Counted from the stretch's first letter, positions 6,497 to 53,235 are shown. The stretch: DNA of 64,000 nt from Verrucomicrobiia bacterium (GCA_036490655.1 DASXDM010000013.1:67582-131581); one strand, 5' to 3'. Made by a program: numbers and translations. Notes: generated by a model from the sequence alone, not told the origin.

Positions 6497-6499
6497 TTT

Positions 6500-20426: not shown

Positions 20427-20540
20427 ATCGTACGAAAGCTTTCTGCGGTTCCTTTCGTGGCTCAAAGAAAGTCCGGGTAAGATGGCGACGCTTATTTCTG
20501 CTTGTTCGCCGGTTGAAGGCATCTCAAAATCAATCATTCC

Positions 20541-26526: not shown

Positions 26527-29988
<3,462 letters not shown>

Positions 29989-30001: not shown

Positions 30002-30859
30002 ATGAGCCCGTTAATCACCAAACGTCTGCCGATGCTGCTCTTCGTTTTATCCATCGCGGCAGGCGCACAGGGCCAAAATCAGATGCTTTCTCCCGGTCCG
30101 GGCCGTTGGACCAACAGCCTGGGCATGATTTTTGTACCGGTACCCGGCACGCAGGCACGGTTTTCCATCTACGAAACGCGGGTGAAGGATTTTGAAGTAT
30201 TTGCGGCGTCCAAACCGAAGTTGGACGGCACAAATTGGGACCACGCGTTCTATCACGGAACCACTCCGGTCTCAACCGCAGGCGATGATCCGGTCATCGA
30301 TGTCAGTTGGAACGATGCCACAAATTTTTGTGATTGGCTGACCGGGATGGAACAGAAGTCCGGGAAAATCTCCACCAATGAATCCTATCGCCTGCCGACC
30401 GATGACGAGTGGAGCGATGCGGTGGGGATCGGCGGCCGGGAGACGGGCGCAACGCCAAAGGAAAAGAGCGCCAAACTCAAAGAGGTTTATCCGTGGGGAA
30501 CCCAATTTCCACCGCCGCCCCATGCGGGAAATTTTGCCGACCAGGCGGCACTGGATTATTTCACCAATTGGCCGCACATCACGAATTACGACGATGGTTA
30601 CGTGACGACTGCGCCGGCCGGCAGTTTTAACGCGAATCAATCCGGCATCTACGATCTCTCCGGCAACGCGATGGAATGGTGCGGGGATTTTTATGATGCT
30701 TCGCACAAGCAGCGGGTGTTGCGCGGCGGCGCATGGATCAATTGCGGGCCCAAGACGCTCCTGTCATCTTATCGCGAACACGTTTCCCCGGAACGGTCCA
30801 GTGTGGCGACCGGATTTCGCTGCGTCCTGGACGGGCAAACGGCGCCGGTGGAGAAATAA
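30002..30859 (+). CDS. formylglycine-generating-enzyme (SUMF1/FGE-sulfatase) domain protein
   Basis: 285 aa with a signal peptide. RLPTDDEWSDA, GNAMEWCGDFYD, RVLRGGAW, GFRCV. Confidence 0.85.
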   Translation: MSPLITKRLPMLLFVLSIAAGAQGQNQMLSPGPGRWTNSLGMIFVPVPGTQARFSIYETRVKDFEVFAASKPKLDGTNWDHAFYHGTTPVSTAGDDPVIDVSWNDATNFCDWLTGMEQKSGKISTNESYRLPTDDEWSDAVGIGGRETGATPKEKSAKLKEVYPWGTQFPPPPHAGNFADQAALDYFTNWPHITNYDDGYVTTAPAGSFNANQSGIYDLSGNAMEWCGDFYDASHKQRVLRGGAWINCGPKTLLSSYREHVSPERSSVATGFRCVLDGQTAPVEK

Positions 30860-30869
30860 AAAAATCTTT

Positions 30870-32018
30870 ATGAACAAAATCACGAAAAATTTTCTGAATC
30901 ATTGCGCCATCCTTTTGGGCGCAGTGGCCGCGCTGACGCACCCGTCCAATATGTATGCCGAGACGAACATGGTGAGCGATTCCAGGATCATTGATACGAA
31001 TACGCTCGCGCAATGGTCCGCGCCATTTCGCAACTGGCATTATTGGCCGACCCACGTCATTCCCGCAGTCCCGCCGTTGCCGGGCGCGACGAACATCCTG
31101 GGTACGGACATCGCCACCGTGTTCCAAATCCCCGGCGATGACAAATGGTACATGAGTTTTGTCGGCTACGATGGCAGCGGGTACCAAACGTACATCGCGG
31201 AAAGCACGAACCTGGTCGATTGGGGAAATTATCAACTGGCGATGGGTTACGGCCCGACGAATGAATTCGACCAGGGCGGCGTCACGCTCGGCGGGTTTTT
31301 GTTGCAATCGTACGACCTGAAAGCGCCGCGTCTGTTGCAGCGGCGTGATGGGAAATATTGGTCGATGTACGGGTCCTATTCGAAGCGGGGCGGCTATGAA
31401 CAGCATCCCATCGGGGAAGGTTTGGCGATGAGCGACGACGGTTTGCATTGGCAACCGGCGCTCACCAATCCGGTGGTGTCACTCGCCGACCCGGATACCG
31501 CCCAATGGGAAAGCAACCGCATCTATCAGCCCTGGCTTCTGGAATATCGCGGACGCTTTTTTGATTTTTACAATGCCGCATATAAGAGCCATGAGCAAAG
31601 CGGGGTCGCCTTTTCAACCGATCTGACCAACTGGATCCGTTATCCAGGCAACCCGATCATCCATAATCGTCCGGGCGGTTACGATGCCGGCTTTTGTTCC
31701 GATCCCAAGGTGTATCGCGATGGCGATCACTGGACGATGTTCTATTTTGGCGTGGGCCACGGCGGCGCGCACATCATGATCGCTTTTTCCCGCGACCTGG
31801 TAAATTGGACGCCGGATCCCGCTCCGCTTTACAAGTCAGGGGGAAATCCGAGCGGTTTGGACAAGCAGTATGCGCATAAGACCACGCTGGTGTATAATCC
31901 GAAGAACGACACGTTTTATATGTTCTACTGCGCGACGCCCGGCAAAAAAGGCTCCATCACCGGCGGGCGCGGCATCGGGTTGATCACGAGCAAACCATTG
32001 GATCCGCATCAGGAATAA
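30870..32018 (+). CDS. five-bladed beta-propeller glycoside-hydrolase-like protein (GH43/GH130-type)
   Basis: Start taken at MNKITKNF (signal peptide), because the 30693 extension overlaps the previous gene. Repeated blade motifs: DKWYMSFVGYDG, DGKYWSMYGSY, GLAMSDDGLHW, RGRFFDFYNA, GDHWTMFYFG, AFSRDLVNW. Confidence 0.65.
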   Translation: MNKITKNFLNHCAILLGAVAALTHPSNMYAETNMVSDSRIIDTNTLAQWSAPFRNWHYWPTHVIPAVPPLPGATNILGTDIATVFQIPGDDKWYMSFVGYDGSGYQTYIAESTNLVDWGNYQLAMGYGPTNEFDQGGVTLGGFLLQSYDLKAPRLLQRRDGKYWSMYGSYSKRGGYEQHPIGEGLAMSDDGLHWQPALTNPVVSLADPDTAQWESNRIYQPWLLEYRGRFFDFYNAAYKSHEQSGVAFSTDLTNWIRYPGNPIIHNRPGGYDAGFCSDPKVYRDGDHWTMFYFGVGHGGAHIMIAFSRDLVNWTPDPAPLYKSGGNPSGLDKQYAHKTTLVYNPKNDTFYMFYCATPGKKGSITGGRGIGLITSKPLDPHQE

Positions 32019-32983
32019 CTTTGCCGGCGCGTGCCGAATTTGTCGGCGGCGACCGCGGCAAGGATCACGAAGCCCTTGATGACCTGTTGCCAGAACGGCG
32101 AGATGTCGAGCAGGAACAGGCCGTTGTTCAAAACGCCGATGATGAGGCAGCCGAGCACGGTGCCCAAGATCGAACCCTCCCCGCCGCTCAACGAGGTTCC
32201 GCCGATGACGACGGCGGCGATGGAATCGAGTTCATATCCCTCACCGGCTTTGGGGTCGGCGGCGTCAAGCCGCGCAGTCACGATCAATCCGCCGATGGCC
32301 GCGAGCGCGCCGGTCAACGCATAGACCCAAAGCTTGATGCGATCGACGTTGATGCCGGAGAACGCCGCGGCCTTTTCACTGCCGCCCACGGCATAGATGT
32401 AGCGGCCAAGAATGGTGCGGCGGGTGACGAGATAAAAGAAGGCGACCAGCGCCGCTGAAATCCATACGGCCATGGGAATGCCCAGGAAAAATCCCGCGCC
32501 CATGAAATCGAATTTTGTTCCCAGATCGGTCACGGGAAATCCTCCGGTCCACAGCATGGTCAAACCGCGCGCGATGCTCAACATTCCGAGGGTGGCGACA
32601 AACGGAGGCAGGCGAAATTTGGTGATGACCAACCCGTTGAACCAGCCGAGCACAAAGCCGGCAAGGATTCCCGCAAGGACCGCCCCGAAGACGGTGAATT
32701 GCACGGCCAGCCCGAACCGGCCCAGGATGATCCCATTTTTGAGCAGGCCCGCGGCAAATGCGCCCGCAAAGGCAAGGATGGCGCCGACGGATAGATCGAT
32801 GCCGCCGGTGAGGATCACCAGCGTCATGCCGAGGGACAGGCAAAGGTTCACGGAGATCTGCAGGAGGATGTTACGCCCGTTGGCGAACGTCAGGAATTTG
32901 TCCGACATCAGGCTCAACACGAGGACCATGACCACGAGCGCGACGAGCGGCTGAAGTTTTTTGATGATTTCCTTTTTGTTCAT
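32009..32983 (-). CDS. sugar ABC transporter permease (RbsC/AraH family)
   Basis: 324 aa with about 10 TM segments. LTGGIDLSVGAILAFAG motif. Confidence 0.9.
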   Translation of the reverse strand: MNKKEIIKKLQPLVALVVMVLVLSLMSDKFLTFANGRNILLQISVNLCLSLGMTLVILTGGIDLSVGAILAFAGAFAAGLLKNGIILGRFGLAVQFTVFGAVLAGILAGFVLGWFNGLVITKFRLPPFVATLGMLSIARGLTMLWTGGFPVTDLGTKFDFMGAGFFLGIPMAVWISAALVAFFYLVTRRTILGRYIYAVGGSEKAAAFSGINVDRIKLWVYALTGALAAIGGLIVTARLDAADPKAGEGYELDSIAAVVIGGTSLSGGEGSILGTVLGCLIIGVLNNGLFLLDISPFWQQVIKGFVILAAVAADKFGTRRQSYS

Positions 32984-33612
32984 GGGGTGAGCGTTTGGAT
33001 CGGGATCACCTTCAATGGTTTCAGGTCGGTGGACTCATCATCCACCTCGGCGCAGCCGGCGAAGGAAATGGTTTCGCCGGGCTTTGCCTGGCCGCGCAGT
33101 TGGGGAATCACATTCGTCTCAACGATCCGGTCGAGGGCGGCTGAGAGATCGTTGAAATCCTGGGAATTGGGATAATCGTTCACGTTCAACAAACCTGTGC
33201 CGTCGCGGAGCGCGTCGCCGAAGACCAGGCCGGTTTCCAGGGCAACTTCCGCGTTGGTCGAATCTTTTGAGATCGCCAGGGAAATCTCATCGTCCGAAAT
33301 GGAGACAACTTTTCCATCGCCCCGCAGAAAATAATAATAATTTTCATCCAGCCCGAGGCTCCGGGAATATTTCTTCTTCGCCGCCGGGGGATCGTTTTGG
33401 ATCGCGGACAAAAGTTCCCGGGCGGGGACGGCTTTATCGAGCGATGGCAACAAACGGTTCGTCCAGAAAGTTCCGGCGAATCGCGTGGTGTCAAAAGCTT
33501 TCGCTTTTTGTTCCGCCGCAGCGGTCTTGAGCGGCACGAGATGAAACGGCGGGAAAAGACCGCAAACGGCGGCAGCGACTGCGATCGCGATGATCCAGGT
33601 GACGGCGCGCAT
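32980..33612 (-). CDS. DUF2291-type periplasmic lipoprotein associated with sugar ABC systems
   Basis: 210 aa. N-terminal anchor. FDTTRFAGTFWTNRLLPSL and VNDYPNSQDFNDLSAAL resemble DUF2291. 4-nt overlap with the permease start. Confidence 0.65.
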   Translation of the reverse strand: MRAVTWIIAIAVAAAVCGLFPPFHLVPLKTAAAEQKAKAFDTTRFAGTFWTNRLLPSLDKAVPARELLSAIQNDPPAAKKKYSRSLGLDENYYYFLRGDGKVVSISDDEISLAISKDSTNAEVALETGLVFGDALRDGTGLLNVNDYPNSQDFNDLSAALDRIVETNVIPQLRGQAKPGETISFAGCAEVDDESTDLKPLKVIPIQTLTP

Positions 33613-33618
33613 CAGAAA

Positions 33619-34572
33619 TTATTTCTTCCCGTAATCGGAATATTTGGCCACGTTGGCCTGGGTCACCAGCTCGACGGGCACGGGAATTTTTTGCGGGAAA
33701 TCACGCTTGCCCTTGAGGTAGGCATCGGCGAATTCAGCGGACTTGCGCGCCATGACTTTGGGAAACTGCATCCCCGTCGCCTCGATTTTTCCCTGGGCGA
33801 TCAATTTCACAACATCGTCCGCACCGTCGAACCCGAAGACCTTCACCTGCCGGTCTTTGCCGGTGGCGACCAGGGCCTGATACGCACCCATCGCCATCGC
33901 ATCGTTGCCGCAAAAAACGGCTTTGATGTCCGGATGCGCCTGCAAGATCGAGGTCATGACATCGAGTCCTTTGGCGCGGTCAAAATCCGCGCTTTGCTGC
34001 GCAACCATTTTCAAACCGGGAAAGCGGTCCACCACGCTGTGAAAGCCTTTCGAACGGTTCCAGGTATTGTTGTCACCGACGATGCCGAGCAGTTCGGCAT
34101 ATTCGCCCTGCTGACCGACGGTCTTGATGAAATATTCGCCGATCTTTACCGAGCCGGAATAACTGTCCGACAGCATCTGCGAGGTGGCGGCGTTCGTGGA
34201 ATTGATCTCTCGATCGATGCAGAAAACAGGAATGCCCGCGGCTTTGGCCTTCAAAACATTCGCCACCGACCCGTTGGCATCCGTGGGGTTGAACAGGATC
34301 GCCTGGTAACCGGCGGCGATGAGGTCGTCAAAATTGGCGGCTTCCTTCGCCGTATCATTCTGCGAATCAAAAATCGTGGCGTCATAGCCCAGTTCGTCCG
34401 CGCGATCTTTGGCGGTTTGCGCCAGCACGACAAACCACGGATTATTGAGAGTGGAGATGACCACGGCGATTTTTTGTTTTGGCGCGGATTGCGCGTTCAC
34501 GGTCCGGGTGAACAGCAAGGCGACCGTCGCGATCAGAACGGCGCCGGCCAATTTGAGCCAATGGGTTTTCAT
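33619..34572 (-). CDS. sugar ABC transporter substrate-binding protein (RbsB-like, PBP type I)
   Basis: 317 aa with a signal peptide. [31 protein letters not shown]. Confidence 0.9.
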
Positions 34573-34595
34573 ATGTTTTCTTAGTTTGATTTGAC

Positions 34596-36074
34596 CTATA
34601 AAACTCGTTTTACCGCCCGTTTCCAGCCGGCGTGATTGGTTTCAACCAGCTTCAAATCCATCCGGGGACGGAAAATTTTGTGCCGGTGCGGCAATTTCGA
34701 CAACTCATCGACAGATTTGCATATTTTCAGGGCAAGCAAACCTTTCATCGCCGCGCCCCAGGCGGAACTTTCGGCGACCTCGGCAACTTTCAATGCCGCG
34801 CCAGTCATATCGGAGGTGAATTGCATGAGGAATTTATCGCGCGTGGGTCCGCCATCGGCATGAAGCGTTTGCAATTTGATCTTCGCCTCGGCGCGCATCA
34901 TATCCAGCGCGTCGCGGACCTGATAGGCGATGGATTCTTCAGCCGCCCGGGCAATTTGCGCTTTGCTGGTATGGGCCGTCATGCCCAGGATCGCCGCGCG
35001 GGCATCCGGCGACCAATACGGCGCGCTCAATCCCGCGAACGCAGGCACGAGGTAGACGCCGCCATTATTGTCCAGGCTGGCAGCCAATTTTTCGATTTCG
35101 GCAGAGTTTTTAATGAATCCCAGTTGATTCTTCAGCCATTCAATCGTCGCGGCGGAAAAATTGATGATGCCTTCATAGGCATAGACGGGTTTTCCCCGAT
35201 GGACCCAGGCCAGCGCGGTGACCGCCCCGCCTTTTGACGGGCGATATTTCCCGCCGATGTTCAACAGGATGGAGGTGCCGGTGCCAAAGGTTGCCTTGGC
35301 TGTGCCCGGCAAAAAACATCGTTGCGCGAACAGGGAAGCCTGGGAATCGCCCATGACCCCGGCGATAGGAATTTTTCCAGGCAAAATCCCGTGTGCATCC
35401 GTGAGGCCAAAACGCGTCGCGCTCTCGCGAACTTCTGGCAGCGCGCGCGGTGGCACCTTGAACATCTTGCAGAGATCTGAATCCCAGCGGAGTTTGCCGA
35501 TATCGAACAGGAGAGTCCGGCTGGCATTGGTGGAATCTGTCGCAAAAACTTCCCCGCCGGTCAGCCGATGGATCAAATAGACATCCATAGTGCCGATGAC
35601 AGCGCGGCCGGTCTTCAATTTCGCCGCGAGCGCGGGTTTATTTTCGACGAGCCAGCGGATTTTTGACGCGGAGAAATAGGCATCGATCTTCAAACCGGTT
35701 TTCGCCCGGACAAAACCTTCGCGCCCTTGCGCCCGAAGTTTCCCGCAGATCGCATCTCCGCGCCGATCCTGCCAAACGATAGCGTTATGCGCGGGCTTGC
35801 CGGTCTTGCGATCAAAGATCACGACGGTCTCGCGCTGGTTCGCGATGCTCAAGCCGGCGAGTTTTGAAATCCGCTTTGGATTGCGCCGGACGATCTGGCG
35901 AATGACCGAGAGGACGTTTTGCCAGATCTCTTCCGCGTCATGTTCGAGCCAGCCGGGCTGCGGATAAATTTGACGGTGGGCGCGCGAAGTTTTATCGAGG
36001 ATGTTGCCGCGCGCATCGAAAAGAACCGCTTTGGTCGCGGAGGTGCTCTGGTCGATGGCGAGGATCAAACTCAT
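34596..36074 (-). CDS. FGGY-family carbohydrate kinase (glycerol-kinase/xylulokinase-like)
   Basis: 492 aa. [40 protein letters not shown]. Confidence 0.9.
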
Positions 36075-37069
36075 TTCAAAAGGTCCAAAGCAGTTTTAGC
36101 CAACCCTTCCATGGAAATCCCGTAATGGCGAAAAATATCGGCCTGGGCACCGGTGACCGTATCTTCATCAGGAATGCCGACAATTTTGAAGGGCAAAGGC
36201 ACACCGGCTTGCATCAGGATTGAAGCGCAGGCTTCGCCAAGTCCTCCATGGACGCTGTGTTCCTCGACGGTGACGAGCGCACGACATTCGCGCCCCGCCT
36301 TCAAAACGGTGTCCGCATCCAAAGGCTTCACGGTATGCATGGAAATCACGCGGCAATTCAAACCGCGCCCGGCGAGGTGGGCGGCGGCGAGCATCGCATG
36401 GGCCACGGTTTCGCCAGTCGCAATGAAGGCAACATCGTTGCCATCCCGCAATCGAATAGCTTTACCGATCTCAAATGGCGCATCAGGCTTGTGCAGATGG
36501 AGCATCGCGGCTTTGCCGAAGCGGACATAGACCGGCCTGGTTGATTTCGCGGCGGCGCGAATGGCTTCGCGCGTTTCAAAATTATCCGCCGGGACGACGA
36601 TGGAAATATTATGGATCGCGCGCAGCACCGCGAAGTCATGAAGTGAATGATGGGTCGTGCCGAGCGCACCGTAACTCACGCCGGCGCTGATGGCGATGAG
36701 GGTGGCGGGAACATCGGAATAACAGAGGTCATTCTTGATCTGTTCAAGCGAACGCGCGGAGAGAAAGCACGCCGGGGAAACACCAAAAGATTTTTTCCCG
36801 CAGGCGGCCAGGCCGGCGGTGATGCCGACGAGATTTTGCTCGGCGATCCCGACCTCAACGAGCTGTTTGGGCAACGCTTTCGCGAAGGGGGCGAGCTTGC
36901 CGGAGCCGCGCGAGTCGCTCGTGACGGCGATGATGTGGGGATTCGCTTTCGCAAGCTCTTCGAGGGTCGCGGCGAATTCATCGAGATTGGCGCGGCCGAT
37001 CTTCAGGCCAAGTTTTTCCGCCATCGCTTTTGCGGCAGGCGTGAACAAAGATGGGGCAGGGGCGCTCAT
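36071..37069 (-). CDS. transketolase, C-terminal (Pyr/TKC) subunit of a split enzyme
   Basis: 332 aa. VEVGIAEQNLVGITAGLA and VEEHSVHGGLG. 4-nt overlaps on both sides. Confidence 0.9.
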   Translation of the reverse strand: MSAPAPSLFTPAAKAMAEKLGLKIGRANLDEFAATLEELAKANPHIIAVTSDSRGSGKLAPFAKALPKQLVEVGIAEQNLVGITAGLAACGKKSFGVSPACFLSARSLEQIKNDLCYSDVPATLIAISAGVSYGALGTTHHSLHDFAVLRAIHNISIVVPADNFETREAIRAAAKSTRPVYVRFGKAAMLHLHKPDAPFEIGKAIRLRDGNDVAFIATGETVAHAMLAAAHLAGRGLNCRVISMHTVKPLDADTVLKAGRECRALVTVEEHSVHGGLGEACASILMQAGVPLPFKIVGIPDEDTVTGAQADIFRHYGISMEGLAKTALDLLK

Positions 37070-37899
37070 TTGCCCTCCTTCATTTTGGCTTCCAGAGCAT
37101 CGAGCTCGGCGAGGGCCTGTTTCAATTCAGCGTCCGCAGGGACACCGTGATGCCATTTGGCCACATCCTCCATAAAACTTACGCCCCGGCCTTTGATCGT
37201 ATTCGCAATGATACATGTTGGTTTTCCGGTTTCCAATGGCTGGCTCAATGCCGCGGTCAATTCAGCAAAATCATGGCCGTTCACGGCTTTCACGGCCCAG
37301 CCGAATGCCCGGAATTTTTCATCGATCGGCTCGCTGCTCATCACATCGCGGGTGCGGCCGGAGATCTGGAGCGTATTGTGGTCGATGATCGCGGTGAGAT
37401 TATCCAGTTTATAATGCGCCGCGGCCATGGCGGCTTCCCAGTTCGAACCTTCGGCGAGTTCACCGTCTCCGAGCAGGGTGAAAACGCGATATGCCGCGGA
37501 ATCCATTTTCCCGGCGATCGCCATGCCGACGCAGATCGGCAGGCCATGTCCAAGGGCGCCGGTATTCATCTCAATTCCCGGGACGTGCCGCGTAGGATGG
37601 CCGATAAAATGCGACTGGTAGTGGCAGATCGTTTTCAATTCCGCTTCCGGAAAAAATCCGCGGTCGGCCAGCACCGTGTAGAGCGCCTCGACGGAATGTC
37701 CCTTGCTCTGGACATAACGGTCGCGCGCGGGGCTGGAAAAATTCTGGGGCGAGACGTTGAGGATGCGATTATAGAGGACGTTGAGAATGTCGAGGCAGGA
37801 GAGGCCGCCGCCGGTATGGCCGGCGCCGGCGTCCACGATGGCTTCGAGCAATCGTTTGCGCAGGCGGACGGATTTAAGCTGGAGGTCGCGGTCGGTCAT
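37066..37899 (-). CDS. transketolase, N-terminal (TPP-binding) subunit of a split enzyme
   Basis: Start taken at MTDRDLQLKS, leaving a 17-nt gap to the upstream gene. GAGHTGGGLSCLDIL and LLGDGELAEGSNWEAA. Confidence 0.9.
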   Translation of the reverse strand: MTDRDLQLKSVRLRKRLLEAIVDAGAGHTGGGLSCLDILNVLYNRILNVSPQNFSSPARDRYVQSKGHSVEALYTVLADRGFFPEAELKTICHYQSHFIGHPTRHVPGIEMNTGALGHGLPICVGMAIAGKMDSAAYRVFTLLGDGELAEGSNWEAAMAAAHYKLDNLTAIIDHNTLQISGRTRDVMSSEPIDEKFRAFGWAVKAVNGHDFAELTAALSQPLETGKPTCIIANTIKGRGVSFMEDVAKWHHGVPADAELKQALAELDALEAKMKEGK

Positions 37900-37916
37900 G
37901 GATGATCCAAAGGGAA

Positions 37917-39368
37917 TCAACTTTTGCTGGAGGAGCCGCCATGGTGGCAGTGTCCATGATAGTGAGTTTCCCAACCGAAATAATTTCCGAACGCTTCGGC
38001 CAGGATTTCCGCCGAGTGCGATTGGGTCATGACGACATGATGTTCAAATCCTTTTTTGCAGACGTGGTGCATGAGTTTTTGGAGATTGGGGATTTTGGCG
38101 ACGGCGCGATTGCCGAACGTGGCCAGGGTGTCATTGGTCAATTCACCTTCTCCCACGTAAGTGCGGATCCTGCCATCGGTATCGGCGGTGGTGATGCGGC
38201 CAAACGTCAACGGCCCGGCCGGCGTGCGGCCTTCGAGCGCGCCATAGGTGTTTTCCACGCCCAGGATGCTGCCAAGAATCGGCGCGGTGGCGATCTTGAT
38301 GTCGGGCAGAAAGCTTTTTGCCCAATTGCCGCAATGGAACAACACGCATTTATCATCGTCCTCCGCGTAGTTATTATTCCAATCGACGAGCGCGGCGGGC
38401 GTGCCGCCGGCGAGTTGCATGGCGTACATCGTGAGGACGCCCGTCACATCCACTTCGCAGGCGCTGGGCAGGAACTTTTCGCTCATCATGCTCATCAACG
38501 TGCAAACGTTGCAGCCGAAATTTTGTTGGACGGACGTCCAGCACTGGATGGCGGTGGCGTCGATCGCGTTCGCGTCCATCCACTCCGTCAAGATCACCCC
38601 GAGTTTTGCCATTTGCAGGAGTTTTTCCGGCGGGACGCCGGGGGCGGGGGCATAGCTTTTGATCTCCGCCAATTTGGCTTTTACCGACGCAGCGCCGGCG
38701 TCCATTTTTTCCGCCTTAGCCAGAAATTCCGAAAGGTCCACGGTGGTGACGCTGATGCCGTGCCGTTCCAAAATTTTTTCCGAATACCGGACCGTGTTAA
38801 AAGCGCCGGGCCGGGCGCCGACCGCCCCGAGTCGCACGCCGCGCACGCCATTCACCACGCGGCAGACCCCGAGAAAGTTTTGCAGGTCGCGCGCAAAAGT
38901 TTCCGAACCGGGATGCGAAACGTGCTTGCCGGTCAGGGAGAACTTGATCCCGGCCTGGACCAGGTTATTGCATACGGAGATCTTGCCGCAGTAAGCATCG
39001 CGGCGTCGCGCCGGGGAGAGCTGTTTTAAATCGTCAGGATAGGCCTGGACCAGGACCGGCACATTAAGTTTCGACAGCTTGAGCGTGTCCGCCACGCCTT
39101 TCTCATCCCCGAAATTTGGCAGGCAGACGAGGATGCCGTCGAGTTCATCGGCGTGTTTGCGAAAGAGCGCGGCGCACTTGCGCGCATCCGCGTGGGTCTC
39201 CACCCCACCCAGCTTGGAATCCGTTTCGCCGAGTTGGACGGCCTGAATGCCGTATTTTTGAAGGGTTTTTGCGAGATCGGCCCGCGCTTCCGTGATGAGC
39301 GCGTCCGGAAAGAAATCGCGGTTGCCGTAGATGACCCCGAGGCTCGGTTTGGCATTGGCATTATTCAT
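37917..39368 (-). CDS. L-fucose isomerase-like sugar isomerase (FucI/AraA superfamily)
   Basis: 483 aa. SLGVIYGNRDFFPDALITEAR, ILVCLPNFGDEKG, HHVVMTQ. Confidence 0.8.
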   Translation of the reverse strand: MNNANAKPSLGVIYGNRDFFPDALITEARADLAKTLQKYGIQAVQLGETDSKLGGVETHADARKCAALFRKHADELDGILVCLPNFGDEKGVADTLKLSKLNVPVLVQAYPDDLKQLSPARRRDAYCGKISVCNNLVQAGIKFSLTGKHVSHPGSETFARDLQNFLGVCRVVNGVRGVRLGAVGARPGAFNTVRYSEKILERHGISVTTVDLSEFLAKAEKMDAGAASVKAKLAEIKSYAPAPGVPPEKLLQMAKLGVILTEWMDANAIDATAIQCWTSVQQNFGCNVCTLMSMMSEKFLPSACEVDVTGVLTMYAMQLAGGTPAALVDWNNNYAEDDDKCVLFHCGNWAKSFLPDIKIATAPILGSILGVENTYGALEGRTPAGPLTFGRITTADTDGRIRTYVGEGELTNDTLATFGNRAVAKIPNLQKLMHHVCKKGFEHHVVMTQSHSAEILAEAFGNYFGWETHYHGHCHHGGSSSKS

Positions 39369-39537: not shown

Positions 39538-41322
39538 ATGGATCGAGCCGAAATCGCATTTTGGACGGCACGAATCGCAATTATTTTTGCGATCCCGGCC
39601 GGGTTATGCCCGGCGGCAATCGCCCAAACCGATTCGCCGATCGGGACAATTCATGTCGCGGCGGCTCATTTCACTACCGTTGGGACTAATTTGATTTGTG
39701 ACGGCGCGGACAATCCCTTGCCGTTCACCCAATCAGCGGTGAAGCAAAGCACTGCGCCGGCGTTGCCTGGGCCCAATCCGCGCGTCCCTTATTTCACGGT
39801 GCGGTTCGCGATGCCCATCCCGCCCGAGAATGAAACGAACACATTTGCGTCATTGACGGGCCTCAGCCCATCTGTTTTTACCCACAATCATTCACCGGGT
39901 TTCGCGATCCTTCCGAATGGCGATGCGTTGGCGATCTATTTCAGCACGCCGCCCGGCCAGAGTGAAGACTCGACGAACACCACTTTCATCCAGACCCGTT
40001 TGCGTTACGGCTCTGAAGATTGGGACATGCCGGACTTGTTTCTCGATTTCAAGGGGCTCAACGATCAATCCGGCCTGCTCTGGCAGGACGGAGATAAAAC
40101 CCGGTTCTTTGGCGGCGGACGCGGCGCTTCGGCGATGATGCCGTTTAAAATGGCGACGTCGGGAGACAACGGCGCGACGTGGACGCTGTCGCTGCCGCAA
40201 GTGGACCAGCCCGCGAAGAATTATGAGGCGCAGCCGATCACCAGCGCGTTTCGCGCGCCGGACGGCTCGTGGTATTTTGCGATGGATGGCAGCGGGGCAC
40301 ATAGTTTTTTGTGGCACAGCACGAATGAAGGGGTTCAATGGCACCAGATGGAGGGGCGAACGGGCGGGCGGCATTCGACGATTGTGCCGCTGGACGACCG
40401 GGGAGACCTGCTTTCGATCGGCGGAAAAAACGCGAGCGTGAACGGATGGTCGCCGGAGAATTTTTCGACAAACTGGGGGGCGAGCTGGAGCGAGAGCATT
40501 GAATCGCCGTTTCCGCCGCTCAGCAGCGGGCAACGGCCCAGCATGATCCGGCTGGCGGATGGGAATCTGTTTTTTGTAAGTGACGCATACCTGCATAAGG
40601 CCCATCGCCCGCCGCCGGCCGGCTGGAAATATGGCAACGGCTGTTTTGTCGCAATCTCGACGAACAACGGTGTTTCGTGGCGCGTCAAGCCGCTGCCGGT
40701 ACAGTTGCCGGGCCACGACCGTCCCGGCGACGGCACGCTGGGCTATGTCACTGCGCGACAGGCGCCCAACGGGGTCATCTATGTTTTGACGAGCGAGACG
40801 CAACCCTGCCTGCAGTATGAAATGAACGAGGCATGGATCTTCTCGGACGCCGGGGACATCGCCCCGGAAAATTCCGGCGGGGTCGTCAAACAATTTTCCG
40901 AAGCGTATCCGGATGGGAAACCGCGATCGACCTGGAGTGCGCGGATCTGCCCGAACGGGCGCTATCTGCTCGATGGAAGAGAAACGGATTATTACGACGG
41001 CAAGGTAAAACAACATGAGGTCGTTTACGTGAACGGGCGGAAGACCGGACAGGAGATCTATTGGTCGCCGGACGGGAAACTGATTTGGCGGTGGGACTAT
41101 GACCTGGCGGTCCATCATGCGATCTGGTCGCAATTCTGGCCGAACGGGAAAAAGAAATCGGAATCCAACTGGAATATCCAATCCCGGGCGCGGGATCTGG
41201 CGCGAAGTTTCTTTGGTTATGTGGCCGAGGGCCCGGCTTTCCGGTGGGATGAAGACGGCAAATTGGTTTCGGCCGGGAATTTCACGAACGGAATTTTTGT
41301 CGGCAAAGTGGGGGAAGAATGA
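39538..41322 (+). CDS. secreted BNR/sialidase-fold glycosidase-like protein with C-terminal MORN/YwqK-type repeats
   Basis: Start at MDRAEIAFW (signal peptide), because the 39331 extension crosses the promoter region. Asp-boxes SGDNGATW, STNEGVQW, STNWGASW, STNNGVSW. C-terminal repeats: YVNGRKTGQEIYWSPDGKLIW, FWPNGKKKSE. Confidence 0.8.
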   Translation: MDRAEIAFWTARIAIIFAIPAGLCPAAIAQTDSPIGTIHVAAAHFTTVGTNLICDGADNPLPFTQSAVKQSTAPALPGPNPRVPYFTVRFAMPIPPENETNTFASLTGLSPSVFTHNHSPGFAILPNGDALAIYFSTPPGQSEDSTNTTFIQTRLRYGSEDWDMPDLFLDFKGLNDQSGLLWQDGDKTRFFGGGRGASAMMPFKMATSGDNGATWTLSLPQVDQPAKNYEAQPITSAFRAPDGSWYFAMDGSGAHSFLWHSTNEGVQWHQMEGRTGGRHSTIVPLDDRGDLLSIGGKNASVNGWSPENFSTNWGASWSESIESPFPPLSSGQRPSMIRLADGNLFFVSDAYLHKAHRPPPAGWKYGNGCFVAISTNNGVSWRVKPLPVQLPGHDRPGDGTLGYVTARQAPNGVIYVLTSETQPCLQYEMNEAWIFSDAGDIAPENSGGVVKQFSEAYPDGKPRSTWSARICPNGRYLLDGRETDYYDGKVKQHEVVYVNGRKTGQEIYWSPDGKLIWRWDYDLAVHHAIWSQFWPNGKKKSESNWNIQSRARDLARSFFGYVAEGPAFRWDEDGKLVSAGNFTNGIFVGKVGEE

Positions 41323-42923
41323 ACTCGTTGCGAACACCGGACCTGATCGTCATCGCGATTTATTTTATCGCGGTGGCGCTCATCGGCTTTAGGTTTGCGC
41401 GCCGGCAAAAATCCACGGAAACCTATTTCGTTGCGGAGCGAAAAATCCCGTGGTGGGCAATGGGGCTTTCCGTCTTCGCGACCATCATCAGCAGCATCAC
41501 GTTCATCGCGTATCCGGGTGCTGCTTTCAAGGGCAATTGGAATCAACTGGTCCCGGGGTTCATGGCCATCGGCGTTTTATTGCTCGGCGGCTGGGTGTTT
41601 ATCTCGTTTTTCCGCCACGCCGTCGGGATGAGCGCGTATGAATATTTTGAAAAACGCTTTGGTTATGGCGCGCGGGCATACAGCGCGCTGGCATTTTCAG
41701 CGGGACATTTTTCAAAGATGGGTTTCGTCCTGTTCACGGCCGCGGTGGCGGTCTACGGCATGACCGGCTGGGACAAATTTCACGTCATTCTCGGCGCGGG
41801 AATTTTGACGGTTCTCTACACCTTGTTCGGCGGGCTTGAAGCCGTGATCTGGACGGAGGTATTGCAGGGCATCGTCAAACTGACGGGCGTGATGGTCATC
41901 ATCGGCGTCCTGGTCTCGATCATGCCCGGCGGCGCGAGCGCGGCGTTTCACCTGGCGGCACAGAACAATAAGATGAGCCTGGGCCATTTCGATTTCAATC
42001 TGGCCGACAATAAAAATTTCTGGGTCATGCTGATCTACGGCACCTTTTGGTACCTGCAAAAATACGCCGCGGACCAAACGCTGGTGCAACGTTACCTGGT
42101 GGCAAAATCAGACCGCAGCGCGCTGCGGGGAGTGGCGTTGGGCGCGATTTTATGCGTGCCGGCGTGGACGGCGTTTATGCTGATCGGCACGCTGCTGTGG
42201 GCGTATTACCAGCTTTCCCCGGAGGCTCTTCCGGCCAGCCTCCATGATTCAAGCGGACAGATCCTTTCCGACGAGGTCTTTCCGTACTTTTTAACGACGA
42301 AAATTCCCGTCGGGCTCGCGGGAATAATCATGGCCGCGATTTATTCCGCCGCGATGTCCACGATGTCATCGGACTTGAACTGCCTCTCCGCGGTGGGCGT
42401 CGAGGATTATTACCGCAGATTACGGCCAAATGCGACCGACCGCCAGCGGCTGGTCGCAGGCAAGATCATCGTGGCGGTTTGCGGCGCAATCGCTGTCGGG
42501 ATCGCCCTGTTCATCGCGGGAAAAGGCGACAGCGCGCTGAATCTTTATTACGCGGCCACGGCCATCGTCGCGGGCGGATTGGCGGGAATGTTTCTGCTCG
42601 CGTTCTTGAGCCGCCGCGCCAACCGGCAGGGACTTTGGATCGGGATCAGCGCGATGCTTGTGTTCACCGCGTGGGCGGTCTGCACGGGTGGTGATAAAAA
42701 AGTCCTGGATCTTGGCGGTTACAATTACGCATGGCCCAGTGTCATGATCGGCGTGGTCGGCCACGTGATCGTGGTGGTGGTGGGCTGGGTGGCAAGCCTG
42801 TTTTTCCCCGCCGATCCGAAGGTGAAACTGGAATGGACACTGTGGGGCTGGCTGGCGAAACGAAAACTGTCCCGGGTCGAAAAGACGATGATTTCCCCCG
42901 GTTTGGCCGGGCAGAAAATATGA
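41319..42923 (+). CDS. sodium:solute symporter (SSS/SLC5) family transporter
   Basis: 534 aa with about 13 TM segments. ATGA overlap with the upstream stop. Confidence 0.9.
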   Translation: MNSLRTPDLIVIAIYFIAVALIGFRFARRQKSTETYFVAERKIPWWAMGLSVFATIISSITFIAYPGAAFKGNWNQLVPGFMAIGVLLLGGWVFISFFRHAVGMSAYEYFEKRFGYGARAYSALAFSAGHFSKMGFVLFTAAVAVYGMTGWDKFHVILGAGILTVLYTLFGGLEAVIWTEVLQGIVKLTGVMVIIGVLVSIMPGGASAAFHLAAQNNKMSLGHFDFNLADNKNFWVMLIYGTFWYLQKYAADQTLVQRYLVAKSDRSALRGVALGAILCVPAWTAFMLIGTLLWAYYQLSPEALPASLHDSSGQILSDEVFPYFLTTKIPVGLAGIIMAAIYSAAMSTMSSDLNCLSAVGVEDYYRRLRPNATDRQRLVAGKIIVAVCGAIAVGIALFIAGKGDSALNLYYAATAIVAGGLAGMFLLAFLSRRANRQGLWIGISAMLVFTAWAVCTGGDKKVLDLGGYNYAWPSVMIGVVGHVIVVVVGWVASLFFPADPKVKLEWTLWGWLAKRKLSRVEKTMISPGLAGQKI

Positions 42924-44065
42924 ATCCGATCACTTTGCATCAACCCGCGCGCGTTGTTTTTGGGAACGGTTGCGCGAAAGATGGCGTTGAACTTTTGGTC
43001 CAGCGCGGCGTGAAGCGGATTTTACTCGTCACCAGTAAATCCGTCCGTCCGCAAATCGAATTTCTCATAGACGGGATAAAGAAGGGCGGCGTGGACGTCA
43101 TCGAGAGCAGCTTTGTTCCGCCGGAGCCGGCCGTAAAGTTTTTTGAAACGATTTTGCGTGAGGCCCGCGCGGAAAAGATCGATTCCGTCCTGGGAATCGG
43201 CGGAGGCAGTGTCATGGATGTCGCCAAGCTCATCGCGGCGCTGGTGAATTCGGGGCAAAACATCTCCGAAATATTTGGCGTCAACCTGCTGCGCGCGCGG
43301 GATCTATTTTTGGCCTGTTTGCCGACCACCGCCGGGACCGGCAGCGAAGTATCGCCGATCGCAGTCCTGCTGGATGAGGCCGGCGAATTGAAAAAAAGCA
43401 TCGTCAGCCCGCATCTGGTTCCCGATGCGGCGATCATCGATCCGTTGCTGACTCTTTCAGTCCCGCGGGAGGTCACGGCGGCGACGGGTCTTGATGCGCT
43501 GGTCCATTGCATCGAGGCCTACGCGAATAAATTCGCGCATCCGATCACGGACAATTTCGCGCTGCGCGGCATCAAGTTGATCTGCGACAACCTTGGCCGC
43601 GCTGTTCGCGACGGGAAAAATACGGAAGCGCGCGCCGCGGTCATGCTCGGGAGCTTCTATGGCGGGCTATGCCTCGGGCCGGTCGGCACGGCGGGGGTCC
43701 ACGCTCTTTCGTATCCGCTGGGCGGCAAGTTTCGCATCGCCCACGGGGTTTCAAACGCGGTCCTGTTGCCGGAAGTGTTGAGATTCAATTTGTCGTCTGG
43801 GGCTGAACGGTATGCGCAGATCGCAGTCGCCGCGGGCGTTGAAAGGGAGGGGTATGCCCTCGGGACGGCCCAAACCGGCATTGATCGTTTCGTGAAATTA
43901 TCGCGCGAATGCGGCGCGCCGCAAACGCTGTCTGAATTAAAAATACCCCGCGAGGCGATCCCCGGAATGGCCAAAGCCGCCCTGCAAGTGCGGCGCTTGA
44001 TGAACAACAATCTTCGCCCCATGACAGAATTGGACGTGATCGGAATTTATGAAGCAACTTTTTGA
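42920..44065 (+). CDS. iron-containing (group III) alcohol dehydrogenase
   Basis: Start at MNPITLHQPARVVFG (ATGA overlap). VLGIGGGSVMDVAKLIA and the His cluster ALVHCIEAY. Confidence 0.9.
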   Translation: MNPITLHQPARVVFGNGCAKDGVELLVQRGVKRILLVTSKSVRPQIEFLIDGIKKGGVDVIESSFVPPEPAVKFFETILREARAEKIDSVLGIGGGSVMDVAKLIAALVNSGQNISEIFGVNLLRARDLFLACLPTTAGTGSEVSPIAVLLDEAGELKKSIVSPHLVPDAAIIDPLLTLSVPREVTAATGLDALVHCIEAYANKFAHPITDNFALRGIKLICDNLGRAVRDGKNTEARAAVMLGSFYGGLCLGPVGTAGVHALSYPLGGKFRIAHGVSNAVLLPEVLRFNLSSGAERYAQIAVAAGVEREGYALGTAQTGIDRFVKLSRECGAPQTLSELKIPREAIPGMAKAALQVRRLMNNNLRPMTELDVIGIYEATF

Positions 44066-44984
44066 GATGAATGCGAAACTTAAAAATGGGAAACAGACCG
44101 GCGTGATCGTGCCGATGATCACCCCGATCACCGCCGACAACCACCTGGATGAGCCATCCATTGACCGCCTGGTGGATTCGCTCCTGGCCGGCGGCGTGGA
44201 TGGGATCTTCAGCATGGGCACGACAGGCGAGGGCACATCCATTCCCCGCGATTACCGGCTGCGACTGATCAAACAAGTTTTCGCGCGGGTCAATGGACGG
44301 ACCCGCCTCTTTGCGGGCATCAGCGACTCGCATCCTGATGAAATCATTGCGGGCAACGAGTATCTCAAAGCCGGCGCTGACGCGGTCGTGTCACGTCCCC
44401 CGACGGGCATCTCCCCGGAGGAGATGCTGCCCTGGTTTCGGGCGCTTTTGGACGGCTTGAATGGGCCTTTGTTGCTTTATAATATGCCGATGACGACCCA
44501 GGTTTCCATTCCCCTGGACCTGATCGAAAAGTTGTTCCACCATCCCAGGCTCGCCGGCATCAAGGATTCGGAGAACAACCCGGCAAGACATGAAGAACTG
44601 TTGAAACGTTTTGGCGGCCATGAACATTTTTCAATCTTCATCGGGGTGGGCGCCCTCATGGAGCAGGGGCTGCGGCTGGGCGCGGATGGGATCGTCCCCA
44701 GTGTCGGGAACCTGATCCCCGATACCTGCGGGAAAATGTTTGCCACGGCGCGCCGGGGCGATTGGGCGGAGGCGAAGAATCATTTCTTACGCATGAATTC
44801 AGTCGCTGCTCTTTATCAAAAAGGCCGGACGTTGAACGAATCCCTCTCGGTTTTGAAAGCCGCCCTGCACGTCCGGGGTCTTTGTACGCCACAAGTGTTT
44901 CCACCGCTCAAACCGTTGACCGAACTCCAGTTGCGGAAACTTCGCGACGAGATGGAGCGCATGGAGTTGTTGAACGGAATATGA
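44049..44984 (+). CDS. DHDPS / N-acetylneuraminate lyase family class I aldolase
   Basis: 311 aa. GIFSMGTTGEG, YNMP, LAGIKDSENN (Schiff-base Lys region). An alternative start at 44067 is possible. Confidence 0.85.
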   Translation: MKQLFEMNAKLKNGKQTGVIVPMITPITADNHLDEPSIDRLVDSLLAGGVDGIFSMGTTGEGTSIPRDYRLRLIKQVFARVNGRTRLFAGISDSHPDEIIAGNEYLKAGADAVVSRPPTGISPEEMLPWFRALLDGLNGPLLLYNMPMTTQVSIPLDLIEKLFHHPRLAGIKDSENNPARHEELLKRFGGHEHFSIFIGVGALMEQGLRLGADGIVPSVGNLIPDTCGKMFATARRGDWAEAKNHFLRMNSVAALYQKGRTLNESLSVLKAALHVRGLCTPQVFPPLKPLTELQLRKLRDEMERMELLNGI

Positions 44985-45991
44985 GCAAGGCCCGACCCAT
45001 TCTCGGTTTGACCCTCGGCGATCCGGCCGGCATCGGCCCGGAAATCTGCCTGCGCGCATTGAGATCGGCACACTCCCTTAAAGAGTGTGTTCCGGTCTTG
45101 TTTGGCAGCGTCGAGGTGTTGAAACGGGTTTCGAAGCGCGCAAAAATTTCGACGGCAAATTGCCGGGCGGTTTCTTTTTCAGAGTTCACGCGCCCTTCAG
45201 CGATCTCAGGTCCGCTCATCGTTGATTGTCCGGGGATTGATGCGGGCAGAATCAAACCGGGGGCCATTTCCGCCGCCTGCGGACGCGCGGGCTACCAATA
45301 CATCGAGCGCGCGATCGCGGCGGCGCTGGCGGGGAAAATCGATGGGGTGGTGACTGCGCCAATCCATAAGGAATCGCTGCATCTGGCGGGTGTAAAATTT
45401 CCCGGGCATACCGAAATCTTCACCGCGCTCACGAAGGCCAGGCGCAGTTGTATGATGCTTTATTCGGATAAACTGACGGTGAGCATGGTCACGACCCATA
45501 TCGGATTTGCCGATGTCCCCAAAAAGATTTCCGCCCGGCGCATCCTGAATGTGATCGAGCTGACGGCTGAGGCGATGCGCGGGATCCTGCGCCGCGCTCC
45601 GAAGCTGGCCATCTGCGGATTGAATCCCCATGCGGGCGAACACGGTCTTTTTGGGAACCATGAAGAGGAAAGATTCATCGAACCGGCAGTTGCCAAAGCC
45701 CGCCAAAAGAAAATCCAAATCGACGGCCCGTTGCCGCCGGATGCCGCTTTTACCACGGCCCAGCGGAAGAAATACGATGCGATCATCTGTATCTACCACG
45801 ACCAGGGGCATATCCCTTTCAAGATGCTCGCCTTTGATACGGGGGTGAATGTCACGCTGGGCTTGCCGATCATCCGCACCTCCGTTGATCACGGCACGGC
45901 CTTTGACATTGCCTGGCAGGGGAAAGCGGATCCCACGAGTTTATACTCCGCGATCAAGGTCGCGGCCAACATGGCGAGGTCAAAATTATGA
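44981..45991 (+). CDS. PdxA-family NAD-dependent dehydrogenase (PdxA2-like 4-phospho-tetronate dehydrogenase candidate)
   Basis: Start at MSKARPILGLTLGDPAGIGPEI (ATGA overlap). GLNPHAGEHG, YHDQGHIPFK, RTSVDHGTAFDIA. Confidence 0.9.
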   Translation: MSKARPILGLTLGDPAGIGPEICLRALRSAHSLKECVPVLFGSVEVLKRVSKRAKISTANCRAVSFSEFTRPSAISGPLIVDCPGIDAGRIKPGAISAACGRAGYQYIERAIAAALAGKIDGVVTAPIHKESLHLAGVKFPGHTEIFTALTKARRSCMMLYSDKLTVSMVTTHIGFADVPKKISARRILNVIELTAEAMRGILRRAPKLAICGLNPHAGEHGLFGNHEEERFIEPAVAKARQKKIQIDGPLPPDAAFTTAQRKKYDAIICIYHDQGHIPFKMLAFDTGVNVTLGLPIIRTSVDHGTAFDIAWQGKADPTSLYSAIKVAANMARSKL

Positions 45992-47148
45992 TCGGCGTGA
46001 TCGCGGATGATTTGACCGGCGCGGCGGAGATCGGCGCAATCGGTTTGCGCCATGGCTTGCTCGCGGAAATAATCTTTGGGCACAAGCCCAGCAGCTGTGC
46101 CGACCTGGTATGCGTGGATACCGATTCGCGTTCGCAAACGGAGGCGGAAGCCGTGAAGCGGACGATTGCCGCCGCCAGGCTTTTAAAAAAATCAGGCGCA
46201 AAATGGATCTATAAAAAGGTGGATTCGGTTTTACGCGGCCATGTCACGATGGAGATCGACGCGGCGATGAAGCAATTGGGTTTTGGACGCTCCCTCCTGG
46301 CGCCGGCCAATCCCTCCCTGCGCCGGACGATCTCGAGTGGAAATTATTTTGTTCGCGGCAAATTGATCCACAAAACGGAATTTGCCCGCGACCCCCATTT
46401 TCCGCGACACTCGTCCCGCGTGGTTGAACTGATCAAATTGTCCCCCGATTTTTCGGTTTCCGTTTGCCAAACCGGCGACACTCTGCCGGAGAACGGGATC
46501 GCCGTGGCCGAGGCGACGACCCCGGACGATGTCGCCCGATGGGCGAGGCGCCACGACGAAAATATTTTTCCGGCGGGCGGCGCGGAGTTTTTTGACGCGC
46601 TGTTGACTTCGAGAGATTTGAAAGGCGACAGCATCCGGCCAGAGATCCCCGCCGCCAACGGCACGGGGCGCGAGTTTTTTGTCAGCGGCGCGGCAACCGT
46701 TTTAGCGCGAAAATTCGCCATGGGCGCCAGGTCAAAAAAAGACCCGGTATTTTCACTCCCCAAGGAGCTTGGCTGGGGCAACGCCCTGCTGCCTGAGGCG
46801 GCGGAGGCGGTCGCCCTGCGCATCGTGGACGCGTTTAGCAGCCACCGTCGCATTCTGTTGACCGTCGGGCTGCCGATGGTGGCTAATCAAAAAATATCGG
46901 AAAAATTATCCGATCATGTGGCGCAAATCGCGGTTTTAGTGTTGCGTCACACCGAGATCGACCATGTATTCTCTGAGGGCGGCGCCACCTCGGCGGCTTT
47001 GGTGCGGGGAATGGGGTGGAAGCGGCTGACCGTATTGCGCGAAGATGCGCCAGGAGTCGCGACATTACTGGCTGATGGCGGGAAAAACAGTTTGCTGACC
47101 ATCAAACCCGGCAGTTATTCCTGGCCGGCCGAAATTACCGGATTGTAA
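45988..47148 (+). CDS. four-carbon acid-sugar kinase family protein (DUF1537), second copy
   Basis: 386 aa. MIGVIADDLTGAAEIG N-terminus, SEGGATSAALV. ATGA overlap with the PdxA-like stop. Confidence 0.85.
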   Translation: MIGVIADDLTGAAEIGAIGLRHGLLAEIIFGHKPSSCADLVCVDTDSRSQTEAEAVKRTIAAARLLKKSGAKWIYKKVDSVLRGHVTMEIDAAMKQLGFGRSLLAPANPSLRRTISSGNYFVRGKLIHKTEFARDPHFPRHSSRVVELIKLSPDFSVSVCQTGDTLPENGIAVAEATTPDDVARWARRHDENIFPAGGAEFFDALLTSRDLKGDSIRPEIPAANGTGREFFVSGAATVLARKFAMGARSKKDPVFSLPKELGWGNALLPEAAEAVALRIVDAFSSHRRILLTVGLPMVANQKISEKLSDHVAQIAVLVLRHTEIDHVFSEGGATSAALVRGMGWKRLTVLREDAPGVATLLADGGKNSLLTIKPGSYSWPAEITGL

Positions 47149-53147: not shown

Positions 53148-53235
53148 ACACCCGGTCAGTTCGTTTCGGGATTATATACTTGAACTTTCTGGTTTATCGT
53201 ACGCAAGATGCTCGCACCGCCACCGAGCTCTAAAT

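Follow-up and report, generated by a model that had tools for sequence, protein, structure and literature searches.

We found that a seven-gene operon in a 64,000-nucleotide stretch of DNA from a Verrucomicrobiia bacterium (GCA_036490655.1, DASXDM010000013.1:67582-131581; the whole stretch is called the window below) probably encodes the uptake and non-oxidative catabolism of D-apiose. On the sequence evidence, we put at roughly 0.7 the probability that the operon is a new member of the known transketolase pathway for this sugar. D-Apiose is a branched pentose of rhamnogalacturonan-II (RG-II) and apiogalacturonan, and RG-II is its main natural source. The known pathway (D-apiose degradation I, MetaCyc PWY-8089) comprises ApsI, AplK, AptA/AptB and an ATP-binding cassette (ABC) importer of the CUT2 family. 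It was reportedly described for Pectobacterium by Carter et al. in 2018. The original prediction for this DNA, made by a model from the sequence alone, had noted a resemblance to this pathway. The resemblance holds, and it goes beyond gene content to departures from the usual active sites in the transketolase and the kinase.

The operon lies on the minus strand (39368-32009). All of its open reading frames (ORFs) were confirmed at their predicted coordinates, and the Pfam assignments of all seven proteins far exceed gathering cut-offs. The ORF positions and Pfam matches agree with the earlier description of a single minus-strand unit, in the following order, 5' to 3':

37917..39368, minus strand: FucI/AraA-fold aldose-ketose isomerase, 483 aa (Pfam Fucose_iso_C, 101 bits); probable ApsI-like D-apiose isomerase
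37066..37899, minus strand: transketolase N-terminal (thiamine diphosphate (ThDP)/PP-domain) subunit (TK-N), AptA-like, 277 aa (Pfam Transketolase_N, 156 bits)
36071..37069, minus strand: transketolase C-terminal (Pyr + C domain) subunit (TK-C), AptB-like, non-canonical, 332 aa (Pfam Transket_pyr + Transketolase_C)
34596..36074, minus strand: GlpK-like FGGY kinase, 492 aa (Pfam FGGY_N + FGGY_C); probable apulose kinase (AplK-like)
33619..34572, minus strand: CUT2-family periplasmic sugar-binding protein (SBP), Thermotoga ribose-binding protein (RBP) type, 317 aa (Pfam Peripla_BP_4)
32980..33612, minus strand: DUF2291 predicted periplasmic lipoprotein, 210 aa (Pfam DUF2291, 157 bits)
32009..32983, minus strand: CUT2 ABC permease, RbsC-like, 324 aa (Pfam BPD_transp_2)

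The three predicted 4-nt start/stop overlaps were also present, each as ATGA (37066-37069, 36071-36074 and 32980-32983). For TK-N, the most probable start codon is the ATG at 37899 (277 aa), in agreement with the public annotation of an identical contig, and not a TTG at 37974, where a start would overlap the isomerase gene. Promoter and terminator scans found nothing above chance. A pass of the operon proteins against NCBIfam gave generic names only: the transketolase subunits matched transketolase and DXS models, and the SBP and permease matched RbsB and RbsC, in each case below cut-off.

We infer the substrate and every catalytic step from the gene structure, protein families, orthology, synteny and active-site signatures. 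The SBP and permease would import D-apiose, with the DUF2291 protein as an accessory and with an ATPase encoded elsewhere. The isomerase would convert D-apiose to apulose, and the GlpK-like kinase would convert apulose to apulose 4-phosphate. The two-subunit, ThDP-dependent transketolase would then transfer C1-C2 to glyceraldehyde 3-phosphate, yielding xylulose 5-phosphate and dihydroxyacetone phosphate (DHAP).

We compared the operon with enterobacterial D-apiose clusters. The genes aplK, aptA and aptB are named in Escherichia coli SE15 (ST131) in a 2026 paper (PMC13001218). Cluster-positive E. coli (ST131/ST1193) grow on D-apiose as sole carbon source and K-12 does not, a correlation (PMC13001218). 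Compared with the cluster of Pectobacterium carotovorum, the Escherichia cluster lacks apsI and has two oxidoreductases instead (PMC13001218). The SE15 locus encodes two short-chain dehydrogenases/reductases (SDRs), a permease, an ATPase, a DUF2291 protein, an SBP, an FGGY kinase, a SorC regulator, AptA and AptB. Its proteins are 49% (AptA, to TK-N), 40% (AptB, to TK-C), 35% (AplK), 35% (SBP), 40% (permease) and 24% (DUF2291) identical to those of the window. A tblastn search of plasmids with AptA identified a cluster on a Rahnella aquatilis plasmid, with the gene order SBP-DUF2291-ATPase-permease / regulator / aptA-aptB-'fucose isomerase'-kinase. Taking E. coli and Rahnella together, identities to the window proteins were 49-51% for TK-N, 40-43% for TK-C, 35-36% for the kinase, 40-41% for the permease and 35-39% for the SBP.

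The apt clusters and the window have four enzyme families in common (the set including the isomerase in Rahnella), in one operon with an SBP, a DUF2291 protein and a permease. Unlike the enterobacterial clusters, the window operon has no SorC-type regulator and no ATPase gene, and its gene order also differs from theirs. Two identities support our reading of the operon as a new member of the pathway: 51% between the isomerases of the window and Rahnella, and 79% between the Rahnella AptA and the growth-linked AptA of E. coli ST131. NCBIfam has no models for AptA, AptB, AplK or ApsI, and the E. coli proteins match only generic transketolase and GlpK models. A match on an Erwinia plasmid consisted of aptAB alone, the rest of the cluster being absent. 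Clusters on plasmids of Rhizobium sp. CCGE532 (L090) and Caballeronia (L091) contain a split transketolase with D469L and H461S or H461N (E. coli TktA numbering), two SDRs, an FGGY kinase and a CUT2 transporter, without an isomerase; the Rhizobium cluster adds triose-phosphate isomerase and the Caballeronia cluster adds DUF2291. In gene content, both clusters correspond to the SDR variant represented by the apiose cluster of E. coli ST131.

The isomerase is probably ApsI, the usual entry enzyme of the pathway. The 51% identity to the Rahnella 'fucose isomerase' extends over 471 aa (full length). In a neighbor-joining (NJ) tree, the two proteins fall in one family with conserved linkage to transketolase and kinase, and we consider them orthologous. 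The assignment to ApsI was made by elimination from the cluster comparison: the E. coli cluster lacks apsI, and the Rahnella cluster has the FucI-like gene. The original prediction had taken a FucI-like isomerase to be a non-canonical entry enzyme. With a 51%-identical isomerase located between aptB and the kinase in Rahnella, and with the FucI-like gene probably being ApsI, this main claim to novelty falls. The names given to homologues of the isomerase in protein collections were all generic ('L-fucose/L-arabinose isomerase family protein'), and none was D-apiose isomerase. Full-text literature on apulose and apiose isomerase yielded nothing giving the protein family of ApsI.

By sequence and predicted structure, the isomerase is a distant member of the FucI/AraA fold and is not a standard FucI or AraA. 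Its only NCBIfam match was a weak one, to sulfoquinovose isomerase SftI, and there was no sequence-level match in the PDB. A Foldseek comparison of the AlphaFold model (pLDDT 88.8) with structures of L-arabinose and L-fucose/D-arabinose isomerases gave TM scores of 0.71-0.78 at 12-14% identity. The overall fold is shared with FucI (PDB 1FUI) and AraA (PDB 4R1O, 2AJT). In contrast to FucI, the window protein is approximately 100 residues shorter, and its gene is linked to a transketolase and a GlpK-like kinase and not to fucK/fucA or araB/araD. An acidic pair, E305/D329, is invariant across the family in our alignments, and its 24-residue spacing equals that of what we take to be the FucI acidic pair, E337/D361. 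A standard L-fucose/D-arabinose isomerase had been named beforehand as an outcome that would defeat the apiose proposal; we rejected that reading.

The transketolase subunits provide more specific evidence. TK-N keeps the ThDP/Mg and catalytic His residues (H26, H66, H100, D155, N185 and H261), so the enzyme should be active. The 49% identity between TK-N and AptA does not discriminate, as unrelated split transketolases from Rhizobium plasmids reach similar scores, and the active-site residues are therefore needed for the assignment. TK-C contains the motif ISAGVSYGALGTTHH in place of the canonical THAGLTVGEDGASHQ. Relative to E. coli TktA, the changes in TK-C are H461->S, L466->Y, E468->A and D469->L, as in AptB. 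H461->S/N, L466->Y and D469->L were found in all module-linked TK-C proteins, that is, in the window, in all of the 50-odd relatives and in Pseudothermotoga, as well as in the AptB proteins of E. coli, Rahnella and Erwinia. In contrast, TktA and the split transketolase of Carboxydothermus hydrogenoformans (PDB 6YAK/6YAJ) keep H461, E468 and D469, although the latter enzyme shares its fold and split architecture with that of the window. Four canonical substrate residues, H461, D469, R358 and R520, are S, L, L and K in the window TK-C. Its site is thus of the non-canonical, two-subunit AptB type, in an enzyme from a different clade than AptAB.

These replacements would fit apulose 4-phosphate as substrate. 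In canonical transketolases, D469 (D477 in yeast) forms a hydrogen bond with the donor's C4 hydroxyl, and the distal phosphate is bound by H461 together with R358 and R520. In apulose 4-phosphate that hydroxyl is missing and the phosphate sits nearer by one carbon. The subunits thus do not behave like a housekeeping split transketolase, in agreement with the earlier suggestion of a dedicated enzyme.

The kinase also departs from its canonical relative. It scored 570.5 bits against the GlpK model TIGR01311, short of the equivalog cut-off of 590.35, and passed the NCBIfam GlpK 'subfamily' cut-off (565 bits vs 498). It scored approximately 432 bits against E. coli GlpK. Of the E. coli GlpK residues, R83, E84, W103 and D245 are retained, and Q246 and F270 are each replaced by S, in common with AplK and all module kinases. 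These two changes are predicted to take away one aromatic wall of the glycerol pocket. The protein therefore has an AplK-type pocket at an overall identity to AplK of just 35-36%, and it is not a GlpK equivalog with an intact glycerol pocket. The loss of Q246 and F270 speaks against an ordinary glycerol kinase.

We found that the enzymes of the operon are linked in many other genomes. We scanned one genome per species with a five-sequence isomerase alignment as query and took in the 80 closest loci, in which the isomerase is 58-93% identical to that of the window; Pectobacterium and Thermotoga fell outside this set. A split transketolase was present within the flanks in 56/80 loci, and 48/80 had a GlpK-like kinase as well. 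Most of the remaining loci were short contigs. The 80 loci represent approximately seven phyla, including Verrucomicrobia, Planctomycetes, Bacteroidota, Chloroflexi, Acidobacteria, Alphaproteobacteria and a spirochaete. Judged from this distribution, the four-enzyme module is ancient and tightly linked. In the NJ tree, the window isomerase lies in a clade in which linkage to transketolase and kinase is the rule. In the closest genome relative (L007, 11420-15830; isomerase 93% identical), an insertion of approximately 4.4 kb separates the isomerase and TK-N genes, and the flanking sequence examined contains neither an SBP nor a permease gene after the kinase.

A related operon is present in the Thermotogae, where it has been linked to ribose. 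In the annotation of the T. maritima 'ribose operon' (TM0949-TM0960) by Rodionov et al. 2013, TM0951 is named darA ('predicted D-arabinose isomerase') and TM0952 is named drlK ('predicted D-ribulose kinase'); TM0953/4 encode transketolase, TM0955/6 are rbsCA, TM0958 is rbsB, and TM0957 is hypothetical (no COGs). The operon also holds rbsD and rbsK (PMC3750489). The experimental activity recorded for TM0952 was with glycerol, and the whole operon was induced 14-92-fold on ribose (PMC3750489). From its position, TM0957 is probably a DUF2291 protein. Using the T. maritima RBP (tmRBP) sequence, we reached an operon in Pseudothermotoga hypogea (CP007141; L095, 10001-18935) with the order LacI-SBP-DUF2291-ATPase-permease-TKN-TKC-FGGY-Fucose_iso_C and without a ribokinase; all seven gene families of the window operon recur in it. 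Identities between P. hypogea and the window were 58% (SBP), 55% (TK-N), 48% (isomerase), 45% (TK-C) and 45% (kinase), and the window module is closer overall to that of Pseudothermotoga than to that of Rahnella. The P. hypogea TK-C has an Apt-like motif, SGGVSYGPLG. An ATPase and a LacI regulator are retained in the operons of the Thermotogae, whereas the window has no ATPase. The names darA and drlK in T. maritima may need revision. In Klebsiella aerogenes LR134125 (L096, 7808-9329), an AplK orthologue is annotated 'Uncharacterised pentose kinase TM0952', indicating that the kinase of apiose clusters had been placed with the Thermotoga gene in an older subsystem annotation.

Several observations weigh against the apiose reading. 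The best PDB match of the SBP was the T. maritima RBP (2FN8, 386 bits), with 203 bits for the Rhizobium etli SBP (5IBQ/4RY0). The window SBP is approximately 58-65% identical to Thermotoga and Pseudothermotoga RBPs, and the ribose contacts are kept. Its residues at the 11 positions that contact ribose in E. coli RbsB are NWFNDRRFNDQ, identical to the T. maritima RBP, with F15->W as the sole change from RbsB. This pattern is common to all Verrucomicrobia, Planctomycete and Bacteroidota relatives. In contrast, the SBPs of Rahnella, Acidobacteria and Chloroflexi read NFFDDRRWNDQ, identical to that of R. etli. The window SBP differs from the R. etli type at 3/11 contact positions (F15W, D64N and W164F) and is only 35-39% identical to SBPs of the apiose-cluster type (R. 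etli 5IBQ, Rahnella), to which it does not belong; this mismatch bears on the transporter and not on the enzymes. The R. etli SBP was reportedly crystallised with D-ribose (4RY0) and with D-apiose (5IBQ), so that an ability to bind ribose would not speak against apiose; papers gave no ligand data. Its locus contains oiaX (annotated) and genes for a DUF1537 kinase, a DUF2291 protein and a Gfo/Idh/MocA oxidoreductase, and we identify it as an apiose cluster. The window SBP is thus of a ribose-binding type, and this is the uncertain, weak point of the apiose reading, softened by the reported R. etli ligands and by the Chloroflexi loci described below.

The importer is also incomplete. A tblastn search of the 64-kb window found no RbsA-type ABC ATPase, so the importer is only putatively competent for transport. 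The usual place of the ATPase gene, occupied in most relatives, is upstream of the permease and after DUF2291. The gene is absent from the window and from L008 and L024, and in the window the DUF2291 stop overlaps the permease start. The window therefore does not encode a complete CUT2 ABC importer (SBP, permease and an ATPase with two fused nucleotide-binding domains). The absence of the ATPase from L008, L024 and the window suggests repeated loss, with reliance on an ATPase encoded elsewhere. The DUF2291 gene follows the SBP gene in the clusters of E. coli ST131, Rahnella, R. etli, Caballeronia and Pseudothermotoga.

Further points against the apiose reading come from the enzymes. A phylogeny of the transketolase subunits against AptA/AptB had been proposed as a check; in our NJ trees, the window subunits form a clade apart from the enterobacterial AptAB. 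Residues of the phosphate site also vary between clades: at the R520 position, the window has K, AptB has G and the Acidobacteria have R. The kinase lies nearer to GlpK than to AplK in a rough NJ tree; its active-site signature argues for an AplK-like function, and the tree leaves room for independent recruitment. The equation of the FucI-like gene with ApsI was reached only by elimination. In addition, isomerase homologues 60-63% identical to that of the window lie in a cluster without transketolase in approximately six Chloroflexi and Planctomycete loci (L036 5965-21028, L042, L058, L062, L052 and L053). This cluster encodes a SorC regulator, a SIS protein, a zinc-dependent alcohol dehydrogenase, a DRL-family oxidoreductase, another FGGY kinase, an M24-like protein and an ABC transporter. 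It is probably a different sugar pathway that uses the same isomerase family, and the isomerase family alone therefore does not fix the function.

The SBP and the Thermotoga annotation raise the main alternative, that the operon serves D-ribose or D-arabinose, the isomerase producing D-ribulose, the kinase ribulose 5-phosphate, and the transketolase feeding the pentose-phosphate pathway. The closest relative of the SBP is the ribose-bound tmRBP, with its contacts kept; the published annotation and the induction on ribose agree (PMC3750489); and the window module is nearer to that of Pseudothermotoga in TK-N, TK-C, kinase and SBP. However, darA and drlK are predictions, and the only activity recorded for TM0952 was on glycerol (PMC3750489). 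TK-C of both the window and Pseudothermotoga lacks H461 and D469, which makes a generic role in the pentose-phosphate pathway unlikely. The kinase has the AplK-type changes in its pocket, and the Pseudothermotoga operon has no ribokinase yet keeps the whole isomerase-kinase-transketolase module. Lastly, the module is not tied to RBP-type SBPs. Chloroflexi loci L046-48, L059, L076 and L078 combine an R. etli-type SBP with window-type transketolase motifs (TSDSRGSGKL / ISAGVSYGALG / RFGK) and kinase residues, and window-type enzymes are therefore coupled elsewhere to the apiose-cluster type of SBP. Based on these results, we consider a ribose or arabinose operon improbable. A housekeeping transketolase that sits in a sugar operon by chance, beside a glycerol kinase, is far less probable still. 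The kinase does pass the GlpK subfamily cut-off and nears the equivalog cut-off, and TK-N scored 256 bits against the C. hydrogenoformans split transketolase and 262 bits against AptA. But TK-C is without the H461, E468 and D469 that a generic split transketolase keeps, the kinase is without Q246 and F270, and linkage to the isomerase is tight across phyla. We rejected the housekeeping transketolase and the glycerol kinase on these grounds.

The same enzyme logic could act on another aldose, for example a branched sugar or a short-chain tetrose that would lead to erythrulose phosphate. The window-type transketolase, kinase and SBP clades, and the transketolase motifs given above, differ from the enterobacterial ones (VADSTSTAKI / LNAGASYGPLA / RLDG); the window kinase keeps Y135, which is L or M in the enterobacterial kinases; and loss of D469 would fit any ketose phosphate without a C4 hydroxyl. 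On chemical grounds, though, cleavage of erythrulose 4-phosphate would give glycolaldehyde phosphate, which has no obvious fate, and apulose 4-phosphate would give DHAP. Free tetroses are rare, the nearby hydrolases point to apiose-bearing pectic glycans, and the Chloroflexi loci again pair window-type enzymes with the apiose-cluster SBP type. Another aldose thus seems unlikely. The original prediction had left the choice between a branched and a short-chain ketose phosphate; the branched compound, apulose, agrees with our results, and erythrulose is less likely, as it would yield no useful cleavage product. Cutting across these possibilities, the tmRBP-type version of the module, found in Verrucomicrobia, Planctomycetes, Bacteroidota and Thermotogae, might be a distinct pathway for a ketose phosphate other than that of apulose, for example one derived from ribose. 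We regard this as rather unlikely. If it were so, the current reading of the Thermotoga 'ribose operon' would also be overturned.

The surroundings of the operon look like an island for utilisation of plant cell walls (pectin/rhamnogalacturonan), which is circumstantial support for an apiose operon. Glycoside hydrolase (GH) genes are dense at 1942-8377, 17676-21890, 26527-29868 and 47995-56919. The products include a GH31 alpha-xylosidase-like protein, a BNR-repeat protein, two GH78 alpha-L-rhamnosidases, a GH63-like protein, two GH2 proteins (one LacZ-type and one like exo-beta-1,4-galactosidase BT4156) and a GH95 protein. GH78, GH95, GH2 and related families feature in RG-II breakdown. A plus-strand gene (30693-32018) converges on the permease gene, the 3' ends overlapping by 10 nt. 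Its product matches the N-terminal module of NCBIfam NF049877 'beta-D-glucuronidase/beta-L-arabinofuranosidase' (E 5e-33) and has weak matches to GH32/GH130 in Pfam; the public call is 382 aa, and the start is probably near 30870 rather than 30693.

As had been predicted, an operon for a RuBisCO-like protein (RLP) is near, 5.5 kb away (26495-22041, minus strand, four genes). The best NCBIfam model for the RLP is OiaX (518 bits, cut-off 700), and the protein is 48% identical to R. etli OiaX. The DUF1537 kinase of the same operon best matches OiaK (425 bits, cut-off 700) and is 40% identical to the R. etli kinase. The other two genes encode a protein of the Asp/Glu-racemase family and an SBF-family transporter. 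No homologue of ApsD, ApnL or ApnO was found among the annotated ORFs of the window. The RLP operon appears to encode an acid-sugar route that is akin to the oxidative apiose pathway but distinct from it. The suggestion that the genome carries two branched-sugar routes was thus partly upheld: the RLP and kinase have OiaX and OiaK as best matches, but both score below the equivalog cut-offs, and ApsD, ApnL and ApnO were not seen.

On the other side of the apiose operon is a divergent, plus-strand operon (41319-47994) that encodes a sodium:solute symporter, an iron-dependent alcohol dehydrogenase, a lyase of the dihydrodipicolinate synthase family, a PdxA-family dehydrogenase, an AraC regulator and a short DUF1537 kinase with a partial match to D-threonate kinase. 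It resembles pathways for four-carbon acid sugars (threonate/erythronate). A gene for a MORN-repeat protein of 594 aa (approximately 39538-41322) precedes it.

If the operon has the function that we propose, Verrucomicrobia that are abundant in soil and freshwater would catabolise D-apiose with the chemistry of plant-associated Enterobacterales. The pathway would be far more widespread than the labels 'fucose isomerase', 'transketolase', 'glycerol kinase' and 'ribose ABC transporter' imply. The signatures D469L/H461S in TK-C and F270S/Q246S in the kinase distinguish these proteins from housekeeping transketolase and glycerol kinase and could serve to correct many automatic annotations. If our assignment is right, the homologous genes of the Thermotoga maritima 'ribose operon' probably belong to the apiose pathway as well, and its widely used RBP may then also bind apiose.

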